From Candidatus Latescibacterota bacterium (GTDB lineage Bacteria > Latescibacterota > UBA2968 > UBA8231), in NCBI GenBank assembly GCA_965203175.1, contig OZ241867.1, positions 672,001 through 736,000 of the forward strand: a stretch of DNA of 64,000 bases, written 5' to 3'. The notes under the pieces are model-generated. The model was not told the origin of the DNA. It saw only the letters and a program-made list of their open reading frames with translations, and ran no database searches. Positions within the stretch are counted from its first letter, which is position 1; every line of letters starts with the position of its first letter. The position numbers and the translations under genes were made by a program. Of this stretch, positions 16,139-36,625 are shown one piece after another.

Positions 16139-17311
16139 ATGAAGACCTATCGCGTAGCCATACTGGGTTGCCGGGGCCGCGGCACGGCCGCAGCACGCGC
16201 GTACCACGCCCACCCCCGCACGGAAATCGTCGCCCTCTGCGACCTCGTGCAAGACCTGCTCGACACCCTAGGCGACGAACTCGGTGTCGCGGCCCGCTAC
16301 ACCGACCTAGACGAGATGATGGACCAGCACCAACCCGACATCGTCGCCATTCCCACCGGCACGGAATTCCACCACTCGCTGGCGCTGCGCGTACTCGAAT
16401 ACGGTGCCCACATCGACATTGAAAAACCCCTGTGCGTCGATTGCCAAGAAGCCGACGAGGTGCTGGCCAAGGCCCGCGAAAAAAACGCGCGCATTGCCGT
16501 GCATCACCAAGGGCGCGTCGGCGTCTATATGAAAGCCGTGGCCAAAGCCCTTGCCGAGGGACGCATCGGCCAGTTGCGCCACATCCACGGCCACGGCAAG
16601 AACTACTATGGCGGCTACAACCTAATGAACATCGGCACGCACATGATCAACAACATGATCAAGGTCACCGGCCCGTGCCACAGCGTCGCGGCCACCGCCA
16701 CCACCGATGGCCACCCCATCACCCCGACGGATGTGGTGCCCTCTGCGCAGGGCATGGGCACCATCGCCGGCGAACACATCACTGCGACGCTCAGCTTCGC
16801 CGCCGACGTCACCGCAACCCTCCTGCAACACCGCTTTCCCACCGCGGTCAATCCAGTGATAGAATTCTGCGGCAGCGAAGGCCGCTTAGTGCTCTCGCAG
16901 CTCGTCTGGAAAAGGGACCTCGGCGCGTTCCTGCTGCCGCAGCCCCACTACGCCCTCAACGACCAAAGAGAACCCTATGAAGTGCTTCCGCCCATCTACT
17001 GCGAGAGCTACGATCCGCAGAGTTCCGCTCACCCAGACGACTACGCCTATGTAGAGGAATACGTCGCGGCACTCGACGAGGGCCGCGAGCACGAATGCAG
17101 CGGCCAAGCCGGCCATCACATCGTGGAAATCATGATGGGCATCTTCGAATCTGCCGCGTACGGCAAACGAGTGGACTTACCCCAACAGGACCGCGCCCAT
17201 CCCCTCCTGCGCTGGCGGAGCGAAAACGGCCTGCCCCCACCCGATCCCATGCCGCGTCCATACAAAGAGTGGCTGGCGGCAGAGGACGTGCGCTTGGGGA
17301 GGAATGGTTAA
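16139..17311 (+). CDS. Gfo/Idh/MocA family oxidoreductase
   Basis: VAILGCRGRG Rossmann start, IEKP motif, NIGTHMI. Confidence 0.9.
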   Translation: MKTYRVAILGCRGRGTAAARAYHAHPRTEIVALCDLVQDLLDTLGDELGVAARYTDLDEMMDQHQPDIVAIPTGTEFHHSLALRVLEYGAHIDIEKPLCVDCQEADEVLAKAREKNARIAVHHQGRVGVYMKAVAKALAEGRIGQLRHIHGHGKNYYGGYNLMNIGTHMINNMIKVTGPCHSVAATATTDGHPITPTDVVPSAQGMGTIAGEHITATLSFAADVTATLLQHRFPTAVNPVIEFCGSEGRLVLSQLVWKRDLGAFLLPQPHYALNDQREPYEVLPPIYCESYDPQSSAHPDDYAYVEEYVAALDEGREHECSGQAGHHIVEIMMGIFESAAYGKRVDLPQQDRAHPLLRWRSENGLPPPDPMPRPYKEWLAAEDVRLGRNG

Positions 17312-17335: not shown

Positions 17336-18172
17336 GTGAACGACACTGAAAAATTCCTCTTCGACTTGCAGGGCTTCATCGTCGTCCGCGGGTTTCTCTC
17401 GCAACGCGAAGTCAAAGCCCTCAACGACGCTTTCGACGCCAACTGGGATCAGCGCCGCGAAGACCCAATCGGCGATCCCAGCGGCAACATGGCTGGGCTG
17501 CATAAACGCAGCATCCTCACCGGTATGCTCACCTATGAGCAGCCCCATTGCCAGCCCTTCCGCGACCTGCTCGCGCACCGCAAGCTCCTGCCCTACCTCG
17601 ACACTCTGCACGGACGCGGCTGGAAGCTCGACCACGAGCCGCTCATGATCACCGGTTCCAAGGGCATCGAAGGCCTGCGCATCCACGGCACCACCAACGT
17701 CCTCTTCAATGGCTCCCGCTTCTACGCGTACACCAACGGCCAGATGCGCTGCGGCCTGCTCGTCGTCCAGTACACTTTGCACGACCAAAACCCTGGCGAC
17801 GGTGGCCTCTGCGTCATTCCGGGCAGCCACAAGGCGAACTTTTCCTGTCCTCCGAAAATTACGACTTGGGAGGAGCACCAAGAGGTCGTGTACCAAGTGC
17901 CCTTGAAGGCCGGCGACATGGTCATCTTCAGCGAGAACACCTTGCACGGCACCCTGCCGTGGCAGGCGGACCACGACCGCCGCGCCCTGCTCTACCGGTA
18001 CACGCCGAAGTACCTGCACTACGACGGCGGCACGTACGAGGTCGCGCAGCCAGCATGGGTGTCAGAATTGACTGAAGCGCAGCAGGCGGTGCTCGAACCA
18101 CCCTACATCTACCACCACCCCCTCATAGAACCAGACGGCGAAACCGTGGTCCGTCCACGCCGCGAGGATTAG
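17336..18172 (+). CDS. PhyH-family Fe(II)/2OG oxygenase, non-canonical HGT site
   Basis: FLFDLQGF, IPGSHK, KAGDMVIFSENTLHGTLPW, RRALLYRY. Confidence 0.85.
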   Translation: MNDTEKFLFDLQGFIVVRGFLSQREVKALNDAFDANWDQRREDPIGDPSGNMAGLHKRSILTGMLTYEQPHCQPFRDLLAHRKLLPYLDTLHGRGWKLDHEPLMITGSKGIEGLRIHGTTNVLFNGSRFYAYTNGQMRCGLLVVQYTLHDQNPGDGGLCVIPGSHKANFSCPPKITTWEEHQEVVYQVPLKAGDMVIFSENTLHGTLPWQADHDRRALLYRYTPKYLHYDGGTYEVAQPAWVSELTEAQQAVLEPPYIYHHPLIEPDGETVVRPRRED

Positions 18173-19042
18173 TCAGCCCTGCCACTCCAAATTGATGCTC
18201 GTGTACCCGTCTGTATAGCGGCGCAAACGATCGGGTAGGTTGGCCAAAAACCACTGGCCTTCCTCAGGAATTTCCCAAGGGATGTCGATGCGGTGACTGC
18301 GGGCGCGGAAGCCGATGCCGCAGGAGAGGCGCGTCTCTTCAATCCGATTGGGGAACGCGCCGTGATACGTGCGATGGGCGAAGACGATCATGTCGCCGCC
18401 ATTGGTGAAAAGGGGAACGAGGCCGGGGATATCGAAGCCGTTGTACGCGCGTTCCTCCGTGCCCTCCGGGTAGAAGGAGCTCCGGTTGGCCGTCATACAG
18501 AATCCCTCCGGCCCCTCCCAGTCCTCGACGTGAGAATCCTCAATGACGCACAAACCGCCGTGCTCGGGCCGCGAACCGGTCAGGTAGAACCACTTGCCCG
18601 ACGGCCACAGCCCGCGATTGAGAACGTCGCCCGAATGCTTGATCTCGGTCGAATAGCCGCACCAATCGGTATGCCAAGCTACAGGGGCGGAACCGGTCCG
18701 GCGGATGATGGCGGCCGAGCGGTGGAGCGTCAGTTCATCCGTGCCGATCAGGTGCCGGTGAATGTCCATAAAAGGCTCGTAGTCGAGCACCTCCCAGGCG
18801 CCGGGGCCGGACTCGACCCAAGCGTGCCGCGTGCGGCTCTCGCCCGGCTGCAACGTGCGCTCTGGGTCCGCACCGTCCCACACCGCCTGCTTGAGCTTGG
18901 CGACGATCTCCGGCGGCAGCACGTCTTTGATTATCGCGAAGCCGTGCGCCGCCAAGCACTCGTCCATCGCGTCGAGCTCGTCGGTGGCGAACTCATAGCG
19001 GTAGCCCAAATCCGGCTTCTGAATGTGCGAATAGTCTTCCAT
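18173..19042 (-). CDS. PhyH-family Fe(II)/2OG oxygenase (289 aa)
   Basis: RBS AAGGAGG before ATG 19042; HGFAIIKDVL, WHTD, EDSH, GDMIVFAHRTYHG, RLS. Confidence 0.85.
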   Translation of the reverse strand: MEDYSHIQKPDLGYRYEFATDELDAMDECLAAHGFAIIKDVLPPEIVAKLKQAVWDGADPERTLQPGESRTRHAWVESGPGAWEVLDYEPFMDIHRHLIGTDELTLHRSAAIIRRTGSAPVAWHTDWCGYSTEIKHSGDVLNRGLWPSGKWFYLTGSRPEHGGLCVIEDSHVEDWEGPEGFCMTANRSSFYPEGTEERAYNGFDIPGLVPLFTNGGDMIVFAHRTYHGAFPNRIEETRLSCGIGFRARSHRIDIPWEIPEEGQWFLANLPDRLRRYTDGYTSINLEWQG

Positions 19043-19057
19043 GATTTTCCTCCTTGC

Positions 19058-19087
19058 GTAGGGGACGGTTTGCAAACCGTCCCCTAC
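19058..19087. repeat. Perfect 30-bp palindrome, GTAG-type REP-like element
   Basis: GTAGGGGACGGTTTG|CAAACCGTCCCCTAC is its own reverse complement. Confidence 0.85.
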
Positions 19088-20610
19088 AGGGCACCGTCTG
19101 CCAGCGCCAGCTCGTAGCAGGCGGCCTCGCTGTCCGTGCGCACCAACAGATAGGGTGTGGCAAGGGCCGGGGGATTCCAAGTTTTGCCAGCAAAGGCCGT
19201 CATGCGCGCTAGTTCGACGTGGCGGTCGGGGCGGGCCTCGACCAGTACCACGTCGCCCGATTCGCTCATTATCAGCAGGATATCGTCTATCAGGATGAGC
19301 TGGCCGTGGCCGTAGCGCCCGCGTTTCCAGCGGCGCTTGCCGTCTTGCGGGTCGAGGCAGACCAGCACCCCATCGTCGAGCCCATAGACAAAACCATCGC
19401 GATAGACCATGTTGGCAAATTTGGCCTTGAGCCGGGGGCTTTTCCAGACGATATCGCTCGTCAAGCCGCCGTCGGGTGCGGCGTTCACTTGATACAGCTT
19501 GGCGCCAATGCCGTAGCCAGTGGAGACCAAAACCCGGTCTCCGGGCAAGGGCAGGGGGTTGGCAACGCATTCGGCCTGATCCCAGGGCTGGCGCCAGAGG
19601 GGAGCTCCGCTCTGCGGATCGTGCGCGACGACGCTGTAGCTGTTGAAAATCAGGACCTGCTCGCGTCCAGCCAAGGTGACCAGACGCGGCGAGCTGAAGC
19701 CGGCCTTGTCCGTGCCCCCGCCCCAGACAAACGCGCCGGTTTGGCGGTGATAGGCCACTAGCGAGCGCTCATCCGGGCCTCCGGCACTGACCACGACCAA
19801 GCTGTCGAGGACCAACGGCGAACAGCTAATGCCCCACATATGGGCCTTCGCCTGGTTGCTGGTGATAATGTCCCGCGACCAAACCAACTTCCCACTGTCC
19901 AACTCCAAGCAGTTGAGGATACCAGTAGCGCCCAGCGTGAAAACCCAGTCTCCAGCAATGGTGGGCGTAGCGCGCGGGCCGATGCCGGCTATGGCGGTCT
20001 CGTAGCGGGTCGAATCGGCGTGTTGCCAGAGCTTGCGGCCCGTTGCCAAGTCGTAGCAGACGACCTGTTCCTCGGGACCGTGTTGCTCCTGAGTTACGGC
20101 CCGGCCACCCACAATGGCAAAGGAGGACCAAGCGGCACCGACGGGGCGACGCCAGACTTCGCGCGGCGGGTGCTTGGTCCAGTCGCGCTCAAGGTGGATG
20201 CCGCGCAGGCGGTTGTTGCGCTCGGGGCCGAGAAATTGCGGCCAATCGCGGGCGTCGAGCGCGGTCGCGTCACCTCCTTCGACCGCGGTGGCTTCGTCCT
20301 CAGTACTCCAACGCCATTCGAGGACCGGTACGAAGTCGCCACTCATACCCTTAATGCGAAAAAGTCCAACACCAAGCGCAATGGCGAGGACGGCACCGCC
20401 AAAATAGCGCAGGCGCCGTCCCCAAGCTAGCCGCGACGCAAAGAGCAACCAGAGCAACGCGAAGAAAATGGCAAGCATGAAGGTGGCCATGGTACTCATC
20501 ATCTGTCGCTGTCGATGAGGGGCTTCGGGCAACCAGATCCACAGAAGCGCCAAGACGACAACGCCTCCGAGCAGATAGAGGGGCCATAAGCGAGGGCTGG
20601 TCGAGGACAT
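19084..20610 (-). CDS. Membrane-anchored PQQ-like (BamB-type) beta-propeller protein (508 aa)
   Basis: Three N-terminal transmembrane segments, then DWPQFLGPERN, GPRATP, SCSPLV, GFSSP and KTWNPPAL. Confidence 0.85.
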   Translation of the reverse strand: MSSTSPRLWPLYLLGGVVVLALLWIWLPEAPHRQRQMMSTMATFMLAIFFALLWLLFASRLAWGRRLRYFGGAVLAIALGVGLFRIKGMSGDFVPVLEWRWSTEDEATAVEGGDATALDARDWPQFLGPERNNRLRGIHLERDWTKHPPREVWRRPVGAAWSSFAIVGGRAVTQEQHGPEEQVVCYDLATGRKLWQHADSTRYETAIAGIGPRATPTIAGDWVFTLGATGILNCLELDSGKLVWSRDIITSNQAKAHMWGISCSPLVLDSLVVVSAGGPDERSLVAYHRQTGAFVWGGGTDKAGFSSPRLVTLAGREQVLIFNSYSVVAHDPQSGAPLWRQPWDQAECVANPLPLPGDRVLVSTGYGIGAKLYQVNAAPDGGLTSDIVWKSPRLKAKFANMVYRDGFVYGLDDGVLVCLDPQDGKRRWKRGRYGHGQLILIDDILLIMSESGDVVLVEARPDRHVELARMTAFAGKTWNPPALATPYLLVRTDSEAACYELALADGAL

Positions 20611-20615
20611 AGGCA

Positions 20616-21689
20616 CTATACGCCTCCAGTGACGATCTCCAAGCGGACCCAATCGCCGCTGGCGACCGAGCGGGCAATGGCGGCCATGGCCCGCATCGTT
20701 TGAGTTCCATCCTCCACATCGGCCCCCGTCTGGGGCGCGCCGTGGAGAACGACGTCGGCAAAACCTTCGAGTTGTAGCCGGTAGAAATGCGCGTCGGCCC
20801 CTAGCGGCCGGCGATATTGGCCGTCGCGCGTGGAGAAGCACTCGACATCGCTGGATTTCAAAAACCACGGCAGGTAGGTTTTGCCGACGACGCTGCCGTG
20901 TTCTCCGTAGATGTGAAAGCCCTCGTGGTAGTCCATGCGCACGGCGACCGTCAGATCGAGATGTCCCTGACCGCCGTTGGCGAACTCCACTTCGACGAAC
21001 CAAGAATACGCCCCGAACATCTCCTTGCACCGCCCGCGCACGGCCGCGAGCGGGCCACCCAAAAAGCGGGCTAGGTCGATGAGATGCGAGCCGTGGGTCA
21101 GCATGAAGTAGCGCTGCTTGTCGCCCTTGGGATCGCCCACTGGTTTGCGCGCTGCTTTGCTGTGCAGCGGCAGAGGCTGGAGGTTATCAGTCATAGTATA
21201 GCGATAGGTCGAATCGCAATACCAAGCCTTCAGGGCCAACAGCGACCCCATTTCCTCTCGGATGAACTGCCGGGCAAAAGCAATGCCGGGGTCAAAGCGC
21301 TTCATGTGGCCGACCTGGAGCGTATAGCCCGAGTCGGTCACGGCCCGGCGCAAATCCTCGCACTCCTCCACGCTCGTCCCCAACGGCTTTTCCACAAAGA
21401 CGTGTTTGCCGGCCGCCAGCGCCTGCAAGCTGAGCGGGACGTGGAACTGATCAGCCGTGGCGATGATGACCGCTTCCACCTGCGGGTCCGCGAGCATGTC
21501 GGCAAAATCGGCGTAGGTCTTCTCCGGCTGGTGAACGGCGGCCATGCGCTCGACTAAGTCCGGCGCTTGGTCGCAGAGCGCATAAAGGCGCGTATTGCGG
21601 GCCTTTATGCACGACTCAAAGTGGGCGAATTGAGCGATGGGGCCGCAGCCCAACACGCCGATGGACAGGACCTGACTATCCTTGTTCAC
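20616..21689 (-). CDS. Gfo/Idh/MocA family oxidoreductase
   Basis: GVLGCGPIA, GKHVFVEKP, GHMKRFDP, HGSHLID. Confidence 0.9.
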   Translation of the reverse strand: MNKDSQVLSIGVLGCGPIAQFAHFESCIKARNTRLYALCDQAPDLVERMAAVHQPEKTYADFADMLADPQVEAVIIATADQFHVPLSLQALAAGKHVFVEKPLGTSVEECEDLRRAVTDSGYTLQVGHMKRFDPGIAFARQFIREEMGSLLALKAWYCDSTYRYTMTDNLQPLPLHSKAARKPVGDPKGDKQRYFMLTHGSHLIDLARFLGGPLAAVRGRCKEMFGAYSWFVEVEFANGGQGHLDLTVAVRMDYHEGFHIYGEHGSVVGKTYLPWFLKSSDVECFSTRDGQYRRPLGADAHFYRLQLEGFADVVLHGAPQTGADVEDGTQTMRAMAAIARSVASGDWVRLEIVTGGV

Positions 21690-22062
21690 GCGCTGGGCAA
21701 AATGGCGTACGCTTCGATCTCGACGACCAGATGCGGCTTGAGCAGCGCGGCTATGACGACCAAGGTCGAGGCCGGCAAAATCTCGCCAAACACCTCGTGG
21801 TGAGCGCGGGTGACGCCAGCGGCATGGTCCACATCCGTGATGTACACGACCGTCCGCACCACGTCTTCGAGGCTAGCACCGGTCTCGTCGAGGGCCTTGG
21901 CGATAATCCCCAATGCACCTTTGGCCTGCTCGTAGGCATCGCCCTGGTCATGCGGCGGCTGAGCGCAAGTGCCAGCGACGTGAACGTGACGGTCCACGCG
22001 CACGGCGCGCGAATAGCCAAACTCCGCGCCAAACGCACTGCCGGTCGCTATGTTTTTGCGTT

Positions 22063-22066
<4 letters not shown>
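21686..22066 (-). CDS. RidA/YjgF family protein
   Basis: GYSRAVRV, DVVRTVVYITD, PASTLV and VEIEA motifs. Confidence 0.9.
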
Positions 22067-24000
<1,934 letters not shown>

Positions 24001-24095
24001 GAGCAATAATTACGGAAAATTAGCGATTATGGGCTACTCCGCTGCCCGCTAATTTGCCATCTTCTCAGCCTACCTTTCTCCACAGGAGCCCCCCC

Positions 24096-24884
24096 ATGAA
24101 CGCAGACGACAAATACCTCTTTGACCTGACGGGCTATTTGGTCCTCAAAGACGTGCTGACCGCCGAGGAAGTAGCCCAGCTCAACGCCGGCATCGACCGC
24201 CACCGCAACCTTATGAGCGAGATCGACCGCCCGCTGTCCGGCGACTCAAAGACGATGCAAGGCACCTCGCGACGCAAGGACTTAGGCGGCATGTTGGCTT
24301 GGGATCGACCCTGGTGCGAGCCGTTTCGCGAGTTGCTGATACACCCTCGTATCAAGCCCTATCTCGAAGAAATCTTGGGCCGGGGGTATCGCCTCGATCA
24401 CGGGCCGGGGCTGATCGCCATGGACACAGGCTGCGAGGGCGGGCTTTTGCACGGCGGTGGGGTGGAGCGCGGGGACATCTCCGAAGTGTACTTCTTTAAG
24501 AACGACCGCATCTTCACCGGGCTGACCGTGGTCGAGTATCTGCTAGCCGACGAGGGGCCGGGCGACGGGGGCGTGGCGGTGGTACCGGGTAGCCACAAGG
24601 CCAACTTAGCCTGTCCGCGGAGCATGATTAAGTGGGAAAAGCACCAAGAGCACGTGCTCGAAGTAAACGGCAAGGCCGGCGACGCTGTGATCTTCACCGA
24701 GACCTTGACGCACGGCACGCTGCCGTGGACGGCCGCACACGAGCGGCGGGCACTGCTGTACAAGTTCAGCCCAGGCACCCTATCCTATGGCTCGGGCGCG
24801 CACCAGACGGCGTATTCCGAGTACATCGAGGACATGACTGAGGAAGAGCGGGCCGTGATGGAAGCGCCGCACATTAGGCGGTAA
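24096..24884 (+). CDS. PhyH-family Fe(II)/2OG oxygenase, non-canonical HGG site (262 aa)
   Basis: RBS AGGAG; YLFDLTGY, LLHGGG, VPGSHK, KAGDAVIFTETLTHGTLPW. Confidence 0.85.
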   Translation: MNADDKYLFDLTGYLVLKDVLTAEEVAQLNAGIDRHRNLMSEIDRPLSGDSKTMQGTSRRKDLGGMLAWDRPWCEPFRELLIHPRIKPYLEEILGRGYRLDHGPGLIAMDTGCEGGLLHGGGVERGDISEVYFFKNDRIFTGLTVVEYLLADEGPGDGGVAVVPGSHKANLACPRSMIKWEKHQEHVLEVNGKAGDAVIFTETLTHGTLPWTAAHERRALLYKFSPGTLSYGSGAHQTAYSEYIEDMTEEERAVMEAPHIRR

Positions 24885-24949
24885 AAATAGTCCGAGTGAG
24901 CTACGTGAAAGGGTAAGTACTTAAATTCTTTTTTCGCTCTTCGCCTCGC

Positions 24950-26134
24950 TCAGACCAAGGCCATGAGAAATTTGCTGGCTGGTACCACCCGGACGCCGGT
25001 GGTGCGATCCAAGTAATCGTGCTGGTCGGATGCCGTCACACAATAGCGCTGTTCGATCCCCAGCTTGTCGGCGAAATAGCGGAGAGGCCCCAAGCCTTTG
25101 GGTGCCCCGACTTTGCACTCCACCAAGAACCAAGGCTCACCTTCCCATACCACCAAGAAATCAACTTCGCGCTTCTCCAGATCGCGCAGATAGTACAACG
25201 CGGCGTCAATGCCGTGGCTATCCTCGTAGTAATGGCAGAATTTCAACAGATGGGCCGCAACCATATTCTCAAAGCGGGGTCCTTCCTCCTCCGCTTCGGA
25301 CCAGTCCCACAGGTAGTACTTGCCCTCCTTTTTGAGGGCCCGTTCTAGACGCCGGTGATAGGGGGGCACGCGAAACAGATAGTAGTTGCGGGCCAGCAAC
25401 TCGATCCAATTCTTGACGGTTTTGGGGCTAGCTTCGACATCTTCAGCTATATTGCTGATCGACAGAGGCGAGCCGACTCGTCCGGGAATCAGGCTGCCTA
25501 GCAGTTCGACTTGGGCCAAGGCGCGCACAGTCTCGGTCTCGCGGATATCCTCCCGGAATACCCGCTCAAAGCGCTCTTTCTGCCAGCGTTTAAGGGTGCG
25601 CTGACGAGCGGCAATACAGGGTTCGGGAAAGCCACCGAAGGTGAGCAACGTGTCCAAATCGCCACCTGCTTGGTCAAAAATCAAGCTGGGCCGCTCGGTG
25701 GGAAAGGGCAACATGGCCGCGCTAGGGGCGTTCAATTCGCGCAGGGAGAAGGGATGGAGGCGGTAATAGCGGTAGCGCCCCAAGAGCGAATCGCCGCCCC
25801 GCCGGAAAATGTCGAGTCGGGAACTGCCCGTGACCATGATGCGCTGGTCAGATGGGCGGGTATCCCACAGCCCCTTGACCAGCCCTTTCCACCGGGGATA
25901 TTTGTGGATTTCGTCGAAAATGAGAAGCTCGGTCTCAGGGGGCCAATGCCCGTCGAGCAGGGCGCGGCGGTGAGCGCGGTTGTCCCAGTTCAGATAGGTC
26001 GTTGCCTTGAAATCCTTGCCGACCAACCGCGCCAGCGTGGTCTTGCCCACCTGTCTGGGGCCACCGACAAAGACCATGCGCTGGTCCAAGTCTTCTGCGA
26101 TATGGCTTTCGAGATAGCGGCGCTGGAAGGGCAT
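24950..26134 (-). CDS. AAA_14 ATPase with DUF4143 (PD-(D/E)xK-like) C-terminus
   Basis: GPRQVGKTT, IFDEIHK, VTGSS, SLLGR, GGFPE, FENMVA and REVDFLV..LVECK. Confidence 0.9.
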   Translation of the reverse strand: MPFQRRYLESHIAEDLDQRMVFVGGPRQVGKTTLARLVGKDFKATTYLNWDNRAHRRALLDGHWPPETELLIFDEIHKYPRWKGLVKGLWDTRPSDQRIMVTGSSRLDIFRRGGDSLLGRYRYYRLHPFSLRELNAPSAAMLPFPTERPSLIFDQAGGDLDTLLTFGGFPEPCIAARQRTLKRWQKERFERVFREDIRETETVRALAQVELLGSLIPGRVGSPLSISNIAEDVEASPKTVKNWIELLARNYYLFRVPPYHRRLERALKKEGKYYLWDWSEAEEEGPRFENMVAAHLLKFCHYYEDSHGIDAALYYLRDLEKREVDFLVVWEGEPWFLVECKVGAPKGLGPLRYFADKLGIEQRYCVTASDQHDYLDRTTGVRVVPASKFLMALV

Positions 26135-26171
26135 GGGCAATTCCCCGAAACGCGAGATACGTCACCATGAG

Positions 26172-26231
26172 AAAATGGACCCCAACTCCAAAATTATCAA
26201 TACAAAAATGGAGTTGACTCCCAAATTATCA
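26172..26231. promoter_or_regulatory. Operator-like direct plus inverted repeat in a divergent promoter region
   Basis: AAAATGGA..ACTCC.AAATTATCA occurs twice; CAACTCCA (26183-26190) and TGGAGTTG (26209-26216) are inverted. Confidence 0.5.
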
Positions 26232-26250
26232 CGCTAGAAAGGAGCATTCC

Positions 26251-27291
26251 ATGACAGAGCGAAGGGTGGATTTGCGCAGCGATACAGTGACCCGGCCGAC
26301 CGAGGCGATGCGGGCGGCCATGATGGCGGCACCCGTGGGCGACGACGCGTACGGCGAAGATCCCACGGTCAATCGGCTGGAAGAACTAGCGGCCGCCAAA
26401 GTGGGCATGGAGGCAGGGCTGTACGTGCCCTCTGGCTCCATGGGCAACCGCTGTGCCTTAGAGGCGCACACGCGGCCGGGCGACGAGGTATTGTACGGGG
26501 CCGGGGCACACGTCTTTGGCGGATACCGGGCCCAATCCGCGGCCGAAGCCTGTCTAGCCGCGCGCTCAGTACCGCTGGAATTCGGCGTCATGCAGCCCGA
26601 GCAAGTAGAAGAGATCGCGGACCAGGCCAACCCCAATCGCGCCCGTCCCTCGCTAGTGTGGATTGAGAATCCGCACAATTTGAGCGGCGGCTCGGCTTGG
26701 TTGCCCGCCCAAGTGGAAGCCGTGGCCTCGGCCGCCCACAAACACGAACTCAATTTGCACATTGACGGAGCGCGCATCTTCAACGCGGCCGTAGCCATGG
26801 GCGTGGATGTGCGCGCCTATACCGAACACGCCGATTCAGTGATGTTCTGCGCTTCCAAGGGGCTCAGCGCGCCCGTGGGCTCGCTGTTGTGCGGGCGGCG
26901 CGAGTTTATCGAGCGGGCCCGGCAGGTGCGTTCGCGCCTAGGCGGCGCCATGCGACAGGCCGGGATTGTCGCGGCCGGAGCCATCGTGGCCATAGAGACC
27001 ATGATCGAGCGCCTAGCCGAGGACCAGGCCCACGCCCAATTGCTGCACGAGGGTCTAGCCGACATTGACGGACTCGAATCCATCCAACCGCCGCACCCGA
27101 CCAATTTTGTGACCGTGGATTGCAGCCGTCTGGGCTGGAGCAGCCAGGGATTGGTCGACCGCTGGAAGGCTTGCGGCATCCTGAGCCACCCCCGCCCGCC
27201 ACACCGGGTGCGCCTAGTTTTTCACCGCCACATCAAGGCGGACGATGTCGAGTACGTCCTAGCCTGTACCCGGCGTCTAGTGGATCATTGA
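26251..27291 (+). CDS. ltaE: Low-specificity L-threonine aldolase
   Basis: [39 protein letters not shown] (PLP Lys), GGAMRQAG. Confidence 0.9.
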
Positions 27292-27295
27292 AAAA

Positions 27296-29143
27296 TTACT
27301 TAGCCTCGCGCAGCAGGAACACGCGGTCGCTGTTGAAGAAGTCGCCAACCCGCTTGTCGCGGTACGCACCACCAGCGATCAACAAACGGCCGTTGACAAC
27401 AGCAGCAGCAGCCCAGCTAACCGGCGAGGGCACGTCGGGACCGCGATGCCACTGGCCGGTAGCCGGTGTGTAGGCAAAGCTCGCCGTCTGGCCGCTTTTG
27501 GCCCCCCGTCCTCCCATGACCCAGACGCTGCCGTCGAAGGCCGTACTCAGCGGAGCACCAGGAGGTCGCGACGGGTGCTCAATCTCGCTCCAGCTATCCT
27601 GCTCGGGGTCATAGACGAACAGACCCGGGCATTGGGACGCGGGGCCCGCGGCAATGTAGATCTTGCCATCCAGAACGCAGCCGCTCGCCTGAAACACCGG
27701 GCCGGGCGCAGGAGCGTCAACTCGCCAACTCGTCTCCCCGGTTCCGATGCTCAGGACCTCTGCCGTCGGGCTTTCGTCGTCGGCACCGCCCACGGCGTAC
27801 AACCGGTCATTGACGGTCAAAGCCACCACTTGACCTGCTTTGCGCGGTAGCGGCGGGCCAAGGCGATAACTCCGCGTATGGGGATCGAAAATCTCGACAG
27901 TCTCCGTCGCCCGCGTCCCGCCACCAGCGCGGAAAAGGCCCCCCAAAAGCCATAACTCGTCGTCGAGAGCGGCGATGCCAGAATAAGCCTTGCCCGGCTC
28001 CAGCATGGGCGGCTCCACGCGCCAAGTGCCCGAGGGAATGTGGTAGGACCACACGTGATCGAGGTTTACCCACTCCGCCGCGGGCCAGCCGAAGAAGGTC
28101 TTGCCCCCAGCGGTGTACAGACGGTCGCCGATGTGGGCAAAGATGTGGTCGTGGTTGCCCGCTGGCATCCTCGGCTGCTCGTCCCAGTGCTCGTGCCAAG
28201 CTTGCTCGAGGTCGGTGAGACGCTCAACCTGTCCCGCCCTCAATACCCAAAGACTACCAGACCGGGCGTGCAGCAGCGCCTGCACCGGACCACCCCCATC
28301 CGTCTGAATCTCCCGCCAAGCCGGCGGACCGTCGGCATCCACAGTCAACTCGCGCAGGCTACCATCGGCAAAGCCGACTACGATCTGATCACCGCCGCGC
28401 GCAATCGCGGTAATGCGAGCATCGACGGGGTTGGCAAAGGAGCGATGAGGCCCGGACGAGCGGGGATCGGCGCGCAGGACGGAGGCCTCCAAGGCCACCC
28501 AGACAAAACCAGCGTCGTCGGTGACAGCACCCTGCCAGGAGCTAGCGAGTTGATTCGCAGGCAGGTCGAGGAGCTGCCAGCCGTGGGGACGTTGGTCCGT
28601 CAGGACGGCGACATCCCGCCGCTGGCCATCGTCAGCAATAGCCCACACATTGCCGAAGGGATCGTCGCACACTGGCGTGATCGCCCACCCGGGTGGAGAG
28701 AACGGCGCGGCCTCGAACATGGCGTCGCCCCGACGCACGGCACCGCACCCAGCACACCAGACATCGCCCCAGCGCGTCGCCAGCAATGGTCCCGGCGACC
28801 CTTGGACAAGGAAAGAAGGCGTCCGAGAAACCGGCTCGCCCCCTTGGCGCGGGAAGCGCAAGACCTCGTCGTCGCGGGCCATCCACACATCCCCATCGGG
28901 GGCAATCTGCAGGCCCTGGACGCGCCCCTCGGCAACGACCTCCCAAGTGTCGGTGTCATCAGAGGCGTTGCGAGCGATGATCCCTTCGGAGCCGAGGACA
29001 GCAACGTAGATTCGTCCGTCGCGATCTTCGAGGAGAAGGCCCGGCCCGGCAGGCAAGGTATCGGCCGCGGCAAGTCCAGCGGAAATGACCATGAGGAAAC
29101 CTATTCGATAGAGGAATCGGAGTGAGATGGAATCAAGTAGCAT
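27296..29143 (-). CDS. Secreted double beta-propeller protein with C-terminal Kelch repeats (start uncertain)
   Basis: N-terminal repeats APDGDVW, DPFGNVW, DDAGFVW; C-terminal Kelch units LYTAGG, LWLLGG, LYAVGG, VWVMGG, LLIAGG. Confidence 0.75.
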   Translation of the reverse strand: MLLDSISLRFLYRIGFLMVISAGLAAADTLPAGPGLLLEDRDGRIYVAVLGSEGIIARNASDDTDTWEVVAEGRVQGLQIAPDGDVWMARDDEVLRFPRQGGEPVSRTPSFLVQGSPGPLLATRWGDVWCAGCGAVRRGDAMFEAAPFSPPGWAITPVCDDPFGNVWAIADDGQRRDVAVLTDQRPHGWQLLDLPANQLASSWQGAVTDDAGFVWVALEASVLRADPRSSGPHRSFANPVDARITAIARGGDQIVVGFADGSLRELTVDADGPPAWREIQTDGGGPVQALLHARSGSLWVLRAGQVERLTDLEQAWHEHWDEQPRMPAGNHDHIFAHIGDRLYTAGGKTFFGWPAAEWVNLDHVWSYHIPSGTWRVEPPMLEPGKAYSGIAALDDELWLLGGLFRAGGGTRATETVEIFDPHTRSYRLGPPLPRKAGQVVALTVNDRLYAVGGADDESPTAEVLSIGTGETSWRVDAPAPGPVFQASGCVLDGKIYIAAGPASQCPGLFVYDPEQDSWSEIEHPSRPPGAPLSTAFDGSVWVMGGRGAKSGQTASFAYTPATGQWHRGPDVPSPVSWAAAAVVNGRLLIAGGAYRDKRVGDFFNSDRVFLLREAK

Positions 29144-29332
29144 CGTGTCCAGCTTTCTTTGTTTGCAGGGTACGTCCTCTGTCGTTTCAATACTTGAGAA
29201 GTTGCAATAATAGATACCTGCCCAGAGGCGGTCAATCTCGACGATAATTGCACAAGACGGGCTTTTTCGTTCTATTGACCCCGTAACGTTCGGCTCGACA
29301 ACTTCGCGCTGATACCACATGGCGAGGCCCCT

Positions 29333-30520
29333 ATGACCAGTACCCTGACCAATCAACAGATCGCCGACTACCGCGCAAACGGCTACCTCATCATCCGCGA
29401 TGTCGTCTCTTCTCAGGAGACCTCCGAGCTGCGAAGCATCGTCCAGCGGATGGCCCGCGCAGGAGCGTATCCATCCTCTCTGAAATACCCCACACCCGGC
29501 AAGTACACCATCAGCGGCAACCGGATCGCCGAGCCCGGATTGTCTCCCATTGCCGAGCATCCTGCGGTCGTCGACGCGGTCGAAGCCATACTTGGACAAC
29601 CCACTCATCTGACCGCGTACGTCGCCTATCTGCGCTCCCCTAGCGACAAAGGCGGCGGCGCTCACTGCGACTACAAGCGCTGGCGCCCCGTGGGTTCCTC
29701 CATGCGTTGGCTCTTCGCCATCATCCCACTAAACGACTTCAACCGCGAATACGGCCCACTGCTCGTCTCGCCCGGATCACACAAACTCGCGCAAGTCATC
29801 GACCCAGATGCTCACATCTTGGATCTCACGCGCCCCGATCCCGAGCAACTGCCCGACTTCATCGATCCCGAACTCAAAGCCGGCGACCTGCTGCTGATGG
29901 ATATGCATACTTGGCACAAGGCACCGGGAGGAACCACCTCTGACGACCGCGTTGGGATTTTCAACAAGTACTGCGCCGTCAACGCACCGCCCGCCGCAGG
30001 CTACTATTCCTACGACCGCACCGCCTACGAAGCGTTGAGCGACGCTGGCAAACGGCTAATACCCCTCCACTTCGACCAACCGATCACCGACACCCGTCTG
30101 CTCATCGAATCGACATCCGATTCAGAGTCTCGTTATCTCCTCACCAGCACTGACGGCAATGGAAGCTGGGAACTGCCCGGCGGCACAGGCTGGGAAGAAG
30201 AAAGGGTCGGCTGGGACGTCGGCGCTCGAATCGGCTCCTTGCAGTCGCTCATCAAGAATCAGTTAAACGTCGATATCCCTTGGGCATCCTACATCGAAGA
30301 CGTCGTAACCGATGGCGGCGTCTCTCGACTCTACGGGTATGCAGACGCTGAAGTGGATCGCGGATCACTTGGCGATGGAAACTGGTTCACGCAAGACCAA
30401 CTCCTGAACATGCTCGGCGAGTCGCACGCCATCTGCCGCGCTGTCTCCACATGGCACAGAGAGGATCTAATTCGGGGCAGGGGCAAGGCGGTCAGCCAGA
30501 GCCGACAGCAATTCGAATAG
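29333..30520 (+). CDS. PhyH-family oxygenase fused to a degenerate Nudix-like domain
   Basis: YRANGYLIIRDV, HCD, SPGSH, KAGDLLLMDMHTWH; C-terminal YLLTS..WELPGG. Confidence 0.75.
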   Translation: MTSTLTNQQIADYRANGYLIIRDVVSSQETSELRSIVQRMARAGAYPSSLKYPTPGKYTISGNRIAEPGLSPIAEHPAVVDAVEAILGQPTHLTAYVAYLRSPSDKGGGAHCDYKRWRPVGSSMRWLFAIIPLNDFNREYGPLLVSPGSHKLAQVIDPDAHILDLTRPDPEQLPDFIDPELKAGDLLLMDMHTWHKAPGGTTSDDRVGIFNKYCAVNAPPAAGYYSYDRTAYEALSDAGKRLIPLHFDQPITDTRLLIESTSDSESRYLLTSTDGNGSWELPGGTGWEEERVGWDVGARIGSLQSLIKNQLNVDIPWASYIEDVVTDGGVSRLYGYADAEVDRGSLGDGNWFTQDQLLNMLGESHAICRAVSTWHREDLIRGRGKAVSQSRQQFE

Positions 30521-30557
30521 GACGGTCTTACCAGCCACGAAGACTAGGCCACTAGGA

Positions 30558-31895
30558 TCATCGAGGTTTGAGATGATCGATGCGCCCTTCCTGGAAATCC
30601 ACTTCCAGCCAAGGGTCGGCTGTGTCGTGGCGGAACTCGTAGAGTTGAGCGCGCATCTGAGCCGCCACCTCCTGCAAGTCGGGGTCGTCAATCCGATTGA
30701 CGCTTTCGGTGGGATCGGCCTCTATATCGTATAACTCCTCGGGCTCCCGCGTGATCACGTGGCGAGTGGGGCGCTGGCCCATAGAGGGAATCGCGTCGCG
30801 CCGCACCGCCGTCCACGTAGTCGAACGAAATAGATCCGTGGGCAGCATGGTGGTGAGACCAGCGGCCAAGTTGCGCACGAATTTGTAGCGCCGGCCGCGC
30901 AGCACCCGGTAGGGATTGTAATCGACCACCTCGTGAAAGCAGTGCGAAAAGAACGTGTACTCCCAGTCGGGGACGGACGGATCGGCTAGTCCCGGCAGGA
31001 GAGAGCGACCGGGCAAGTCCTCGGGAGCGGGAACTCCGCACCAATCGTGCAAGGTGGGGCGGATATCGGTCCAATTGATGAGGGACTGACTACGGGTGCC
31101 GGGGGTAGTGATGCCCGGCACCCGCAGGATAAAGGGGCAGTGGTGGCCGCTGTCGAAGAAGGATGCTTTGGCCCCGGGGAAGGGCATGGCGTGGTCGGTT
31201 GTAACGATGACCAAGGTCTCGTCGGCCCATCCCGATTCCTCCAGTGCGTCGAGCAGACAGCCCACGCCAAAGTCGAAGCGGGAGACCGCCTGATAGTACT
31301 CGGCGAGGTCGGCGCGCACGTCGGGTACGTCGGGCAGATAGGGCGGCACCACCACGTCGTCGGGGCTGTACTGAGTTTCCGGCACGTCGGGATAGGGACG
31401 CTCATTGCCAAAACCCCGACCCGCGCGGTGGGGATCGGTAAACCCCACGTGCATGTAGAACGGCTGGTCGGGGTGAGCGGCCCAAAAGTCGCGCGCGGCA
31501 CGGGCCAATTCGACGCCGTTTCTGGCATTGACTCCAGGCTCAAAGTCGAACGGGTACACACTGGGCGGCTCTACGTGCTTTTTGCCGATGCAAGCCGTGG
31601 CGTATCCATGTTCCTTGAGGCTAGAGAGCGTCGAGGTAATATGGGGGTGCGTGGAGAAACCGTGGATGCCGTGGCAGTGGCCGTACTGGCCGTGGGTGTG
31701 GCTGTGGTATCCAGCGAGGATGCAGGCACGGCTGACCGCGCAGGAAGGGCTAGTGCAGAAGGCTTGCTCGAAGACCGTGCCCTCGCGGGCAAACGCGTCA
31801 ATGCGGGGCGTGCGGACGACGCTATTGCCGTAGCACTCGGCAATGCGGCTCCAGTCGTCGGCAATGAGGAATAGGACGTTGCGCTGGGCAGTCAT
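30558..31895 (-). CDS. Sulfatase, N-sulfoglucosamine sulfohydrolase-like (445 aa)
   Basis: NVLFLIADD, TPRID, CAVSRACILAG, GKKHV, DPHR, TTDHAMPFPGAK, EELYD. Confidence 0.88.
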   Translation of the reverse strand: MTAQRNVLFLIADDWSRIAECYGNSVVRTPRIDAFAREGTVFEQAFCTSPSCAVSRACILAGYHSHTHGQYGHCHGIHGFSTHPHITSTLSSLKEHGYATACIGKKHVEPPSVYPFDFEPGVNARNGVELARAARDFWAAHPDQPFYMHVGFTDPHRAGRGFGNERPYPDVPETQYSPDDVVVPPYLPDVPDVRADLAEYYQAVSRFDFGVGCLLDALEESGWADETLVIVTTDHAMPFPGAKASFFDSGHHCPFILRVPGITTPGTRSQSLINWTDIRPTLHDWCGVPAPEDLPGRSLLPGLADPSVPDWEYTFFSHCFHEVVDYNPYRVLRGRRYKFVRNLAAGLTTMLPTDLFRSTTWTAVRRDAIPSMGQRPTRHVITREPEELYDIEADPTESVNRIDDPDLQEVAAQMRAQLYEFRHDTADPWLEVDFQEGRIDHLKPR

Positions 31896-31902
31896 AGCGC
31901 AA

Positions 31903-32331
31903 TCAGGCAGAAGCCGATTCAGAGGTGCCCTTGTGCCGCTCGCCGTACGGGATTTCGCACGCCTCATCAACGCATTCGACCCTGCCGAACCGATGCCGAT
32001 TGCGCGCGACGAGATCGTAGCCTGCGCGAAAGAGCTGCTTCAGCCCCGGAATGCGGTACACCCCGGTAAATAGATTCCAAGGAGGAAGCCGGCGGTAAAT
32101 CTGGTACACAGCATCCGCCCCGACATCGATCTGCCCGCCAGCGTGAATGAGGCGCAGGCCGGTGTTAAAATCAGAACTGGAGAGGATGGGAAACCGCTCT
32201 TCAATGCCGGTCGTTTGGCGCGGCAAGTACTCAAAGCGGTCATTGCGGTCAAAGCGGCGAATGCGGCCGACACTCCACAGGCAGAAGCGGCATTCGCCGT
32301 CGTACACGATTACGGGACGGGTTTCGCTCAT
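31903..32331 (-). CDS. DCC1-like thiol-disulfide oxidoreductase (DUF393)
   Basis: VYDGECRFC, GADAV, YDLVARNRHR. Confidence 0.88.
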   Translation of the reverse strand: MSETRPVIVYDGECRFCLWSVGRIRRFDRNDRFEYLPRQTTGIEERFPILSSSDFNTGLRLIHAGGQIDVGADAVYQIYRRLPPWNLFTGVYRIPGLKQLFRAGYDLVARNRHRFGRVECVDEACEIPYGERHKGTSESASA

Positions 32332-32559
32332 ATTTCTAAGATTCCTTCTACATTGCAAGTATTTATGATTATACAACAGAAGTAGTAACGTCAACAAACG
32401 CGTTGTGTAGGTGCTGAGTTTATGAGAAATTACAAAAAAAGACTATTCGCTGCGCATTATGAGACATGCTGTAAGTGAGACTATGGCAAAAACGGAAAAC
32501 AGCTTCTTGGATTCTAATAGTGGCCCAATTCGCTGTTCTGACGAAAGGCAAGGCTGACG

Positions 32560-33366
32560 ATGATGACCGAAGAACAACGCTATCTTTTTGATCTATGCGG
32601 TTTTCTGCACCTGAAAAACGTCCTGACCCCGGAGGAACTGGATGCGGCTGCGGATGCCGCTAGTCGCTACATCAACAGCGCACCGGAAGACCTGCCGCCG
32701 CATTTCGGACGATCAGAAAGTCTCAAGGGCTTTGCTCACGGCTTCGCCTTCGACCGGGCGTTGGAAAAGCTGGTCTTTCTGCCGGCCGTCTGGCCCATCG
32801 TGCTGGAGCTGACCAACGGCAAACCCATGCTCGCTAGCGGTACCATGATGCTCGACTCTCCCGACGGACATACCGAGGCAGTGCAACTGCATTGTGCCCG
32901 CGACGACTACGGCTTTGAGAGCGCCCGTTACGAGGTGCGCCAAGGCCGTATCTACTGCGACGACTTTGTAGTGTTTCCCTACCTGGACGATGTGCATCCC
33001 GGTGATGGCGGGCTACTATTGGTGCCGGGGTCGCACAAAAGCGAGTTCGACCGGCCGCCGCAGCTTTTTAATCAGGGTCGCATCGAAGGGGAGGTCCCGC
33101 CGGGTATCGTCAATATCACGCCTGCGGCTGGAGATGTGGTGATCATGCCCGAATGCGTAACCCACGGGGTTCTACCCTGGCGAGCCCCCGACCGCCAGCG
33201 CCGGGTGCTGACGCTGCGCTACCGGCCACACCACCGCCAAGCCGGCCCCATTCCGGAGGCAGTCAAAGAGCGGCTGGCACCCGAAACGCTCGAATTGGTC
33301 GAATCAGCGCACTATACCCAAGAAAAGAAAATCGCCACTCAGCAACGGGTGTGCCTCAGCCAGTAA
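32560..33366 (+). CDS. PhyH-family Fe(II)/2OG oxygenase, non-canonical HCA site
   Basis: YLFDLCGF, QLHCAR, VPGSHK, AGDVVIMPECVTHGVLPW. Confidence 0.85.
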   Translation: MMTEEQRYLFDLCGFLHLKNVLTPEELDAAADAASRYINSAPEDLPPHFGRSESLKGFAHGFAFDRALEKLVFLPAVWPIVLELTNGKPMLASGTMMLDSPDGHTEAVQLHCARDDYGFESARYEVRQGRIYCDDFVVFPYLDDVHPGDGGLLLVPGSHKSEFDRPPQLFNQGRIEGEVPPGIVNITPAAGDVVIMPECVTHGVLPWRAPDRQRRVLTLRYRPHHRQAGPIPEAVKERLAPETLELVESAHYTQEKKIATQQRVCLSQ

Positions 33367-33425
33367 TGGAGTCCAATGCTGTTCGGAACCGAAAATCAGA
33401 GAAAAATTGTTGAGGAGGATTCAGA

Positions 33426-33797
33426 ATGGAGCTGATTCGCTCGCCGGACATTCAGGTGTTCTGTAATTCTGGAATAGAATCTCGACAACTGCTATTTCCC
33501 GAGAACTCTTCTTCGGAAAGGATCGCGATTACACACGTCACCATCCCACCTGGAGGTAAAAACCCTGCACATCGACATAAAACATCAGAACAGATTTGGA
33601 TTGCCTTGCAAGGTTCTGGAAATTTGATCCTGGAAAACGAGACGGTAGAGAAATTCGCTGCCGGTGACGTTGTTCGATTCGAGGACGGTGACCTTCATGG
33701 GTTTGTCAACTCGGGAACCCAGCCCTTTACCTATATGTCAGTCACATCGCCGCCCTTAAATTTTCGTGCGGCCTATGACAGTGGTTGGTCAACGTGA
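33426..33797 (+). CDS. Cupin domain protein
   Basis: PAHRHKTSEQIW..G.G and GDVVRFEDGDLHGFVN; RBS GAGGAGG. Confidence 0.88.
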   Translation: MELIRSPDIQVFCNSGIESRQLLFPENSSSERIAITHVTIPPGGKNPAHRHKTSEQIWIALQGSGNLILENETVEKFAAGDVVRFEDGDLHGFVNSGTQPFTYMSVTSPPLNFRAAYDSGWST

Positions 33798-33842
33798 TTG
33801 CACTGAAATGGATTGCCCTAACAGTATGTATCATTTGCAACG

Positions 33843-34748
33843 ATGACCGCAAAAGAACCACAAATAGAGCAGCTGCTTGATCATCGCGATGAGATCGAGG
33901 CCAGCGTCAGTGCCTATCTGGGACACGAGTGGGGTGTCAGTGAAATTCAAGACCTAGCGAAAAAGTCTTCTCACCCTTCCGCCGTCCTTTCAGACGGGGA
34001 GTTCGGGGTGTTTGCAAAACTCGGACGTGGCCGCTACGCCGCCGAGCAGTTTCGCTGCGAGACTGTAGGATTGTCGGCAATGTCTGCCATGGCTGGTGTC
34101 CTGACTCCCATCGTCGTCGACTGCTTGTCGATACCCAATGGCGCGCTGTTGGTGCTGAAAGCCGTGCGTATCATCGAACGCACGAAGACAGCGTGGGAGG
34201 AGGCGGGGCGTTCGTTGGCACGGCTCCATGCTGTCAGAGGGCCTATATTCGGGTTCGACGAGGATAGCTACTGGGGCGATTTCCGGCAGAACAATCGACC
34301 GCTCGACAGTTGGGACGCGTTTTTCTGGGAACGCTGGATCGAACCCAGAATTGCGTACGGCCTAGATAAAGGACACTTGACAGTCGATTTTGCAAGGGAA
34401 GTTGAGCGGCTGGCGCACCGTCTCGATACAGTCTGCGGATCCCGAGTAGAACCCTCGCTTGTGCACGGAGACGCGCACCAAAACAACATCCTCAGTACCC
34501 CTGAGGGTCCCGTGTTCGTCGACCCGAATGTCCACTTCGGCCATCCTGAACTTGACTTGGCATTCGTCGACTACTTCCAACCGGTGCCGGAGGTCTTGTT
34601 TTCGGCCTACGCCGAGATATTGCCCATCGATACAGATTTTCCCAACCGGCGCGAGTTATGGCGTATGCCGTTCTACCTAGCAATGGTCGAAGGTCACGAG
34701 GGCATTCCTCAGGACCAAATTCGCGCAGTGCTGGATCAATTCTTATGA
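33843..34748 (+). CDS. Fructosamine/ketosamine-3-kinase family protein
   Basis: FAK, E..GL, LARLH, FGF, PSLVHGDAHQNN, FVDPNVHFGHPELDLA. Confidence 0.85.
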   Translation: MTAKEPQIEQLLDHRDEIEASVSAYLGHEWGVSEIQDLAKKSSHPSAVLSDGEFGVFAKLGRGRYAAEQFRCETVGLSAMSAMAGVLTPIVVDCLSIPNGALLVLKAVRIIERTKTAWEEAGRSLARLHAVRGPIFGFDEDSYWGDFRQNNRPLDSWDAFFWERWIEPRIAYGLDKGHLTVDFAREVERLAHRLDTVCGSRVEPSLVHGDAHQNNILSTPEGPVFVDPNVHFGHPELDLAFVDYFQPVPEVLFSAYAEILPIDTDFPNRRELWRMPFYLAMVEGHEGIPQDQIRAVLDQFL

Positions 34749-34824
34749 ACTTTGATGTCGAAGGCTAGGCCGGAATAACCGCCAAGCCAATCAACCTACT
34801 CGATTTTAACAAGGAGTTTTCGAT

Positions 34825-35568: not shown

Positions 35569-35653
35569 CGACACGGCTTGCGCTGTGGCCCATGTACGCC
35601 TCGTCCTACGCCCAACCGCTGCGCGGTTCCTCCATAGAAAGGTATAGAAAAAA

Positions 35654-36535: not shown

Positions 36536-36553
36536 GTTGGAGAGGCCTTCTGA

Positions 36554-36578
36554 GGTAGGTCCTTATCTGGACCCTACC
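36554..36578. repeat. Imperfect GTAG..CTAC hairpin (REP-like or terminator remnant)
   Basis: GGTAGGTCC-TTATCT-GGACCCTACC with one bulge. Confidence 0.35.
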
Positions 36579-36625
36579 CGGCTGGCAAATCCTATAACAT
36601 GTAACAGTACGATAGACCACTCACA

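Follow-up and report, generated by a model that had tools for sequence, protein, structure and literature searches.

The closest structurally solved relative of the proteins treated here is HygX, an Fe(II)- and 2-oxoglutarate (2OG)-dependent oxygenase from Streptomyces hygroscopicus, which takes part in the biosynthesis of hygromycin B and is represented by the structures PDB 4XC9, 4XCA, 4XCB and 4ZPI. As described in a review (PMC13374393), its iron site reads H-X-G...E-X3-H, i.e. the metal-binding acid has been relocated and a Gly is found in its former place, and Lys137 fills the gap left by the absent Asp. The same review states that HygX, which is encoded in an aminoglycoside gene cluster, is active in vitro and forms an orthoester. 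Members of the PhyH family without the acidic residue have been reported to act as halogenases, including SyrB2, which lacks the Asp of the HxD motif (PMC2938197). The present study deals with three genes, P1, P2 and P3, in a stretch of 64,000 nucleotides from a Candidatus Latescibacterota bacterium (assembly GCA_965203175.1, contig OZ241867.1, positions 672,001 to 736,000; this whole stretch is referred to as the window, and positions are counted from its first letter). The three genes code for PhyH-family proteins without the HxD carboxylate, and an initial annotation had taken them for either free-standing radical halogenases or a subfamily in which the carboxylate is provided by a different strand. 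Our comparison makes it likely that P1, P2 and P3 are active PhyH-family Fe(II)/2OG oxygenases with a rewired facial triad of the HygX type.

The window contains exactly six PhyH-family genes, as judged from Pfam matches to PF05721 and a local hidden Markov model (HMM) search of all six-frame open reading frames (ORFs) of at least 80 amino acids (aa) (Table 1). P1, P2 and P3 reached 59.9, 51.4 and 40.2 bits with PF05721 (E 5.8e-16, 2.2e-13 and 5.9e-10, respectively), the gathering cut-off being 22. In the alignment of the six paralogs (A1), the His residues of HGT, HGG and HCA in these three proteins share a column with the proximal iron-binding His of the canonical P4 (WHTD), P5 (AHCD) and P6 (WHTD), and the canonical HxD/E...H triad is lacking, with Thr, Gly and Ala found two residues downstream of the proximal His (position +2 in the following). 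This exchange had been noticed in the initial annotation, and the verification of frame, codons and residues showed the observation to be right in every particular. The same holds for further features that had been ascribed to the three genes. The element E-x3-H-G-x-LPW around the distal His occurs as a single copy per protein and is confined to P1, P2 and P3, the canonical three have H, M or Y four residues upstream of the distal His (position -4), and the N-terminal sequence (Y/F)LFDLxG is present in the variants only, as FLFDLQG in P1, YLFDLTG in P2 and YLFDLCG in P3. The HGG of P2 is the exact subfamily consensus H-G-G, and P1 with its Thr at +2 is a loose match only; the two proteins are 44% identical in A1. 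An HMM of the subfamily gave 403, 375 and 202 bits for P1, P2 and P3, and the canonical paralogs scored 88, 35 and 27 bits. Because this HMM separates the two groups, the features shared by P1, P2 and P3 are inherited subfamily signatures and not as three independent coincidences. Finally, an Arg downstream of the distal His (Arg215 in P1) is invariant in all six paralogs, and it is presumably the residue that binds the C5 carboxylate of 2OG.

The relation to HygX became apparent at the level of sequence as well as fold. HygX was the best sequence match in the PDB for each of the three proteins (E 4.9e-9 for P1, 6.5e-6 for P2 and 1.4e-8 for P3). A profile of 106 subfamily sequences (A2) found HygX with E 1.3e-25, followed by EctD as next best (8.2e-13) and human PhyH (2.8e-10), and a profile of the P3 clade (A3) found HygX with E 1.4e-13 and as sole other match a partial one to SnoK. 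In the A2 alignment, the family sequence 'slHgGg' is placed on 'YLHGGN' of HygX and 'FtEaltHGt' is placed without any gap on 'LNEALMHGT', such that the Glu of P1, P2 and P3 comes to lie on the Glu of HygX; moreover, the family proximal His falls on the His of WHSD in EctD and of LHRD in DhiD. The AlphaFold2 models of P1 and P3 are of high predicted quality (predicted local distance difference test 95.1 and 94.9, respectively; predicted template modelling score 0.92 for both). When they were compared to the PDB with Foldseek, the top 10 matches were all chains of HygX for the P1 model (E 2.3e-17) as well as for the P3 model (E 3.5e-15), with template modelling scores of about 0.65-0.73, and other PhyH-type oxygenases ranked after them. 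All Foldseek matches listed for the two models are Fe/2OG oxygenases, i.e. both models have the double-stranded beta-helix (DSBH) fold. The proximal His closes the strand 114-117 in the P1 model and the strand 108-111 in the P3 model, and Glu200 of P1 is situated just past the strand 195-199, with His204 opening the strand 204-207. Since the Glu follows the strand preceding the one that is opened by the distal His, its carboxylate does belong to another structural element. Hence, of the two possibilities put forward in the initial annotation, the carboxylate from a different strand is supported, the subfamily belonging to the clade of HygX. The register of the proximal His was taken from the A2 alignment together with the strand positions in the models, A3 being ambiguous in that loop. 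Pairwise HMMER alignments to HygX, which put its LHGG 8-9 residues upstream of the His of P1, P2 and P3, were set aside.

Based on the homology to HygX and on the description of its motif in PMC13374393, Glu(-4) is expected to coordinate the iron in P1, P2 and P3. Three side chains would bind the metal, namely the proximal His, located where DSBH strand II ends (His117, His119 and His111 in P1, P2 and P3, respectively), the distal His as second ligand (His204, His206 and His202) and, as third ligand, Glu(-4) at the end of the preceding strand, which would replace the HxD carboxylate. The cosubstrate 2OG would bind the iron in a bidentate manner, and the conserved Arg found about 11 residues past the distal His would hold its C5 carboxylate. 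The coordination count of His, His, Glu and 2OG would then equal that of a canonical hydroxylase, and according to established coordination chemistry no site should be left free for a halide, because the four groups would occupy the iron. The activation of O2 would lead to a ferryl species that abstracts a hydrogen from the substrate, and the outcome might be a hydroxylation or, similar to HygX, an oxidative C-O cyclisation.

The distribution of acids among related sequences agrees with the assumed ligand set. A search of 1.84 billion cluster representatives, with clusters defined at 50% identity, yielded 2081 clusters at E<=1e-3, and the clade covers 888 and 137 of them at the stricter thresholds E<=1e-10 and E<=1e-30, respectively. 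From the best 150 representatives, the 98 with a length of 230-400 aa were chosen and combined with P1, P2 and P3. Of these 101 sequences, 98 retain the proximal His and 83 have Gly at +1. Position +2 is occupied by Gly in 79 sequences, Ser in 6, Ala in 5, Pro in 4, Phe in 2 and Thr in 1, with a gap in 4, and by Asp or Glu in none. Glu is found at -4 in 85 and Asp in 4 sequences, i.e. an acid in 89/101, and the distal His is likewise kept in 89/101; the departures are mostly fragments or frameshifted predictions. Among the close orthologs of P1, Glu(-4) is present in 119/119, and the residue at +2 varies (Ser 72, Thr 17, Ala 13, His 6, Asp 5, Pro 5, Gln 1), with similar numbers when counted by sequence pattern. 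The P3 clade (n=118) shows its own signature after the proximal His, with H in 118, C in 114, A in 118, R in 113, D or E in 118 (D 69, E 49) and D in 101 sequences; here, the proximal His is kept in 118/118, Glu(-4) in 116/118 and the distal His in 117/118. As a control, 114 homologs of P6, which among the canonical genes is closest to the subfamily, were inspected. In 112 of them Asp at +2 is accompanied by N, W, H, Y or F at position -4, and two have no aligned His. A quick maximum likelihood tree was calculated from 76 subsampled rows. The 59 rows belonging to the Glu(-4) sampling groups, among which P0184 without acid at -4 was counted, are all found on one side of a branch with a support of 85 in the Shimodaira-Hasegawa-like approximate likelihood ratio test, and the P1/P2 group, the P3 clade and the P6 clade are supported with 95, 99 and 96, respectively. 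This topology is compatible with a single relocation event of the acid. A covariation of HxG/A/T with ExxxH had been suggested as a check in the initial annotation; the acid positions are indeed complementary, but this should not be taken for many separate events of covariation.

Some individual sequences deviate from these patterns. Five of the 119 close P1 orthologs (P0067, P0073, P0076, P0092 and P0093) contain HGD, i.e. the canonical Asp(+2) in addition to Glu(-4), which could represent a reversion or a tolerated second acid. Position -4 carries no acid in P0184 (IFAGSALHG) and a His in P0206, giving a possible 3-His site, and an Asp is found at -5 in P0159 and P0249 (FFMDGAQxHG). Eight representatives of 493-582 aa (P0127, P0130, P0131, P0147, P0151, P0154, P0209 and P0269) show two to four stretches of similarity to P1, for the most part in their C-terminal half, and may be tandem or fused domain forms. 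Within the subfamily, Asp10, Asp99 and Tyr130 of P1 (codons 17363, 17630 and 17723) are specific and near-invariant (at least 90% in A2). Asp99 belongs to an RLDH motif on the strand preceding the proximal His, and a Leu is found at its place in HygX.

Halogenases of the Fe/2OG type replace the triad carboxylate by Ala or Gly, and P1, P2 and P3 might be read as free-standing radical halogenases, with room for a halide where the Asp is missing, similar to SyrB2, WelO5 and BesD. The Gly of P2 and the Ala of P3 at +2 would fit to such a function, the latter being invariant in the P3 clade. Moreover, P1 shows a very weak similarity to the 'chlorinating enzyme' model TIGR01762 of NCBIfam (16.7 bits compared to a cut-off of 226), and CytC3 and SyrB2 can be aligned with the C-terminal third. 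However, this part of the initial annotation was not supported, and a halogenase function is regarded as highly improbable. The conserved Glu(-4) would supply the carboxylate in the same place as the relocated acid of HygX, whereas SyrB2 (IIFWSTLMHAS) and CytC3 (VIFWSNTMHAS) have a Ser at -4. The +2 residue of P1 is Thr and drifts among its orthologs, unlike a conserved halide pocket. The A2 profile matched SyrB2 with E 4.6e-5 and CytC3 with E 3.7e-4, compared to 1.3e-25 for HygX, and these matches cover about 50-60 C-terminal residues only. None of the Foldseek matches listed for the P1 and P3 models is a halogenase, and WelO5 and BesD were absent from the output of all PDB searches. Halogenases of the SyrB2/CytC3 type act on substrates that are tethered to carrier proteins. 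Pfam scans revealed no carrier protein, nonribosomal peptide synthetase or polyketide synthase beside P1 and P2, nor beside the P1 orthologs in the 8 of 45 distant loci that were scanned. Hence, the absence of the HxD carboxylate is on its own no predictor of a halogenase in the PhyH family, and position -4 needs to be checked first.

Several observations weigh against the assignment of P1, P2 and P3 to the HygX type. Their identity to HygX amounts to about 20-22%, and A2, with a 9-residue insertion in HygX, is the only one of all alignments that unites the proximal His of HygX and of the family. The complementary pattern of the acids rests on two or three clades, i.e. on few independent events. 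Lys137 of HygX is replaced by Val143 in P1, Thr in P2, Val in P3 and 'v' in the family consensus, hence, the second sphere differs from that of HygX. Finally, the P3 clade combines Ala(+2) in 118/118 with an acid at His+4 in 118/118, and given these invariant residues its site may differ in detail. It might be assumed that Glu(-4) is no metal ligand and that a 2-His site is completed by water or a substrate carboxylate, in P3 perhaps by the acid at His+4, in which case a reactivity unlike that of both hydroxylases and HygX could be expected. Such a site would be in line with the missing conservation of Lys137, with the location of the invariant D/E(+4) of the P3 clade on the short helix 113-117 directly past His111, and with the few representatives that have Gly (P0184) or His (P0206) at -4 or the Asp at -5 (P0159, P0249). 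Nevertheless, we consider it unlikely, because Glu(-4) is conserved to the same degree as both His, is aligned without gap on the Glu of HygX that belongs to the iron motif named in PMC13374393, and the acid at +4 is specific for the P3 clade and not found in P1. The assumption that P1, P2 and P3 are catalytically dead PhyH folds, which took over a binding or regulatory role after the loss of the Asp, appears even less credible. The canonical triad is broken, and the abundance of PhyH genes in related sponge-associated phyla, stated as more than 1.9% of the genes of Poribacteria in PMC3909097, could permit degenerate copies. However, hundreds of sequences at 30-60% identity retain the two His, the Glu, the Arg and the SHK motif, and in vitro activity is reported in PMC13374393 for HygX, which shares the iron motif. 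Collectively, the evidence still favours active oxygenases with the acid relocated to position -4. The rewired triad as such is already known from the precedent of HygX in 2015, and P1, P2 and P3 are further HygX-type PhyH oxygenases.

The genomic setting of P1 and P2 is not biosynthetic, and no orthosomycin or aminoglycoside cluster was found around the two genes. The Gfo/Idh/MocA oxidoreductase upstream of P1 (Table 1) shows weak similarity to inositol and glycoside 3-dehydrogenases in NCBIfam, all below the cut-offs. Further genes in the surroundings of P1 code for a protein of the dihydrodipicolinate synthase (DHDPS)/N-acetylneuraminate lyase family (15155-16036), the canonical PhyH protein P4, a pyrroloquinoline quinone (PQQ)-type propeller, a second Gfo/Idh/MocA protein and RidA. 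P2 is a solitary gene flanked by those for an ABC-F protein and an AAA_14/DUF4143 ATPase, with a sulfatase and a Kelch protein encoded close by. The gene order DHDPS, Gfo/Idh/MocA, P1, PhyH was found in close Latescibacterota relatives only, in which the upstream dehydrogenase is present in 19/22 loci. At distant loci of P1 orthologs, a gene for a Gfo/Idh/MocA protein or a short-chain dehydrogenase/reductase (SDR) was found within the 4-kb flanks in 33/45 cases. The Gfo/Idh/MocA gene is convergent and just downstream of the ortholog in 12/13 such loci (L028, L031-L039, L042, L044), and 20/21 of the SDR loci share one arrangement with ThyX. Because the distant loci fall into few lineage-specific arrangements, few independent lineages stand behind the link to dehydrogenases. 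These neighbourhoods lend modest support to the view that P1 is linked to a sugar-like or polyol-like substrate which is oxidised in an NAD(P)-dependent manner. For P1 itself, the adjacent genes point to a catabolic setting, with a small molecule derived from a sugar or polyol as possible substrate. No conserved operon from which the substrate could be named was identified; the synteny is confined to close relatives, and the 8 distant loci scanned show varied neighbours of the carbohydrate type. At one of the distant loci, from a metagenome-assembled genome (MAG) of Caldilineales (L026), the P1 ortholog adjoins a gene (5238-7178, plus strand) for a 646-aa protein with EAD1, TIR_2 and FGE-sulfatase parts, which is an unusual fusion.

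P3 is the first of about 16 co-directional genes (Table 1), the G+C content of which is patchy with 0.49-0.56 compared to about 0.60-0.63 upstream. One of the encoded methyltransferases is PCMT-like and has below-cut-off similarity to methyltransferases of the ATP-grasp-maturase and FxLD systems. The array may represent an acquired tailoring or biosynthetic island.

Some details of the gene models in the window differ from the ORF list. The latter gives TTG 24054 as start of P2, for which homology favours ATG 24096. P4 was listed as an ORF of 465 aa (18173-19570, minus strand), which is over-long and with its 5' part runs into the end of the PQQ-propeller ORF (19084-21030); the most likely start is ATG 19042 (MEDYSH...), where the PhyH-like sequence begins. 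P1 and P4 are convergent, and their stop codons abut at 18170-18175. In P5, the PhyH match stops near residue 206 and is followed by a C-terminal extension of about 150-190 aa without Pfam match. Elsewhere in the window, 7951-8964 (minus strand) and 14132-15052 (plus strand) code for paralogous secreted-looking proteins that are alike in their N- and C-terminal sequence, the second having a weak CBM9-like match.

Table 1. Features of the window: PhyH-family genes, codons of the putative iron ligands in P1, P2 and P3, and neighbouring genes
Feature	Position	Strand	Description
P1	17336..18172	+	GTG start, 278 aa; predicted HygX-type PhyH-family Fe(II)/2OG oxygenase; putative ligands His117 (HGT), Glu200, His204
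P2	24096..24884	+	ATG start, 262 aa; predicted HygX-type PhyH oxygenase; putative ligands His119, Glu202, His206
P3	32560..33366	+	268 aa; predicted divergent HygX-type PhyH oxygenase; H-C-A-R-[D/E]-D signature and Glu198-x3-His202
P4	18173-19042	minus	Canonical PhyH, WHTD
P5	29333-30520	+	Canonical PhyH, AHCD, 395 aa
P6	38602-39417	+	Canonical PhyH, WHTD
P1 proximal His117 codon	17684..17686	+	CAC, in GLRIHGTTNV
P2 proximal His119 codon	24450..24452	+	In GGLLHGGGVE
P3 proximal His111 codon	32890..32892	+	CAT, in AVQLHCARDD
P1 Glu200-x3-His204	17933..17947	+	ENTLHGTLPW; Glu codon 17933, His codon 17945
P2 Glu202-x3-His206	24699..24713	+	ETLTHGTLPW; Glu codon 24699, His codon 24711
P3 Glu198-x3-His202	33151..33165	+	ECVTHGVLPW; Glu codon 33151, His codon 33163
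Gfo/Idh/MocA oxidoreductase	16139..17311	+	Pfam assignment; 24 bp upstream of P1, likely operon partner
Members of the P3 gene array	32560-48059	+	Cupin, fructosamine-kinase-family protein, unknown protein, alpha/beta hydrolase, two methyltransferases, P6, two APH-family kinases, RsmD-like methyltransferase, DegT/DnrJ/EryC1 aminotransferase, isochorismatase-family protein, polysaccharide deacetylase, TlpA-like thiol-disulfide oxidoreductase, 228-aa protein without family match

The clade has a far greater size and a wider ecological range than would be expected from its sole characterised member HygX. Orthologs of P1 with 92-98% identity were found in MAGs of Candidatus Latescibacterota, some of which are labelled Gemmatimonadetes or Gemmatimonadota, and those with 55-70% identity in MAGs of Gemmatimonadota, Caldilineaceae, Poribacteria and Chthonomonadaceae. 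PhyH has been described as the protein domain family of highest abundance in Poribacteria, with more than 1.9% of the genes and mostly unknown functions, and the accessible part of this survey does not discuss the metal motif (PMC3909097). A limited literature search found no description of the clade or of the motif outside HygX beyond PMC13374393 and the PhyH survey in PMC3909097. Rather than being peculiar to one antibiotic pathway, the HygX-type iron site appears as the signature of a large uncharacterised clade, which is abundant in uncultivated, often sponge-associated bacteria. It is possible, though doubtful, that this triad marks a large environmental clade prominent in the sponge-associated phyla Latescibacterota, Poribacteria, Caldilineaceae and Gemmatimonadota, the members of which, similar to HygX, perform reactions other than hydroxylation on substrates derived from sugars, e.g. 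a desaturation or an oxidative C-O cyclisation, and do so in catabolism or symbiosis instead of antibiotic synthesis, with the P3 clade making or modifying an amino-sugar-like or peptide-like metabolite. The enzymes of the clade may merit mining for non-canonical oxidative chemistry, yet no new principle is involved, and the expectation of the initial annotation that either of its two possibilities would mean unusual chemistry was overstated, as PDB entries with the rewired triad date back to 2015.

Regarding the known systems, P1, P2 and P3 resemble HygX in the PhyH-type DSBH fold, the sequence H-x-small...E-x3-H-G, the N-terminal Y-[IL]-F-D-x-x-G and the motif GSHKANF. HygX differs by the 9-residue insertion after the proximal His, which is absent from the subfamily, and by lacking near-invariant residues of the subfamily, such as Asp99 and the LPW after the distal His; moreover, it belongs to an aminoglycoside cluster, whereas P1 and P2 are situated amid catabolic-looking genes of a Latescibacterota genome. 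The canonical hydroxylases human PhyH (2A1X), EctD (3EMR/4MHR) and DhiD (8ZYB) share the Pfam family and the fold with P1, P2 and P3, and their His, His and Arg are equivalently placed. However, they use HxD, have Ser (EctD) or Gly (DhiD) at -4 and match the subfamily profile with E values of 8e-13 to 3e-10 compared to 1e-25 for HygX. The halogenases SyrB2 (2FCT) and CytC3 (3GJA) have no Asp in the HxD position either and can be aligned in the C-terminal strand region, but they carry Ser and not Glu at -4.

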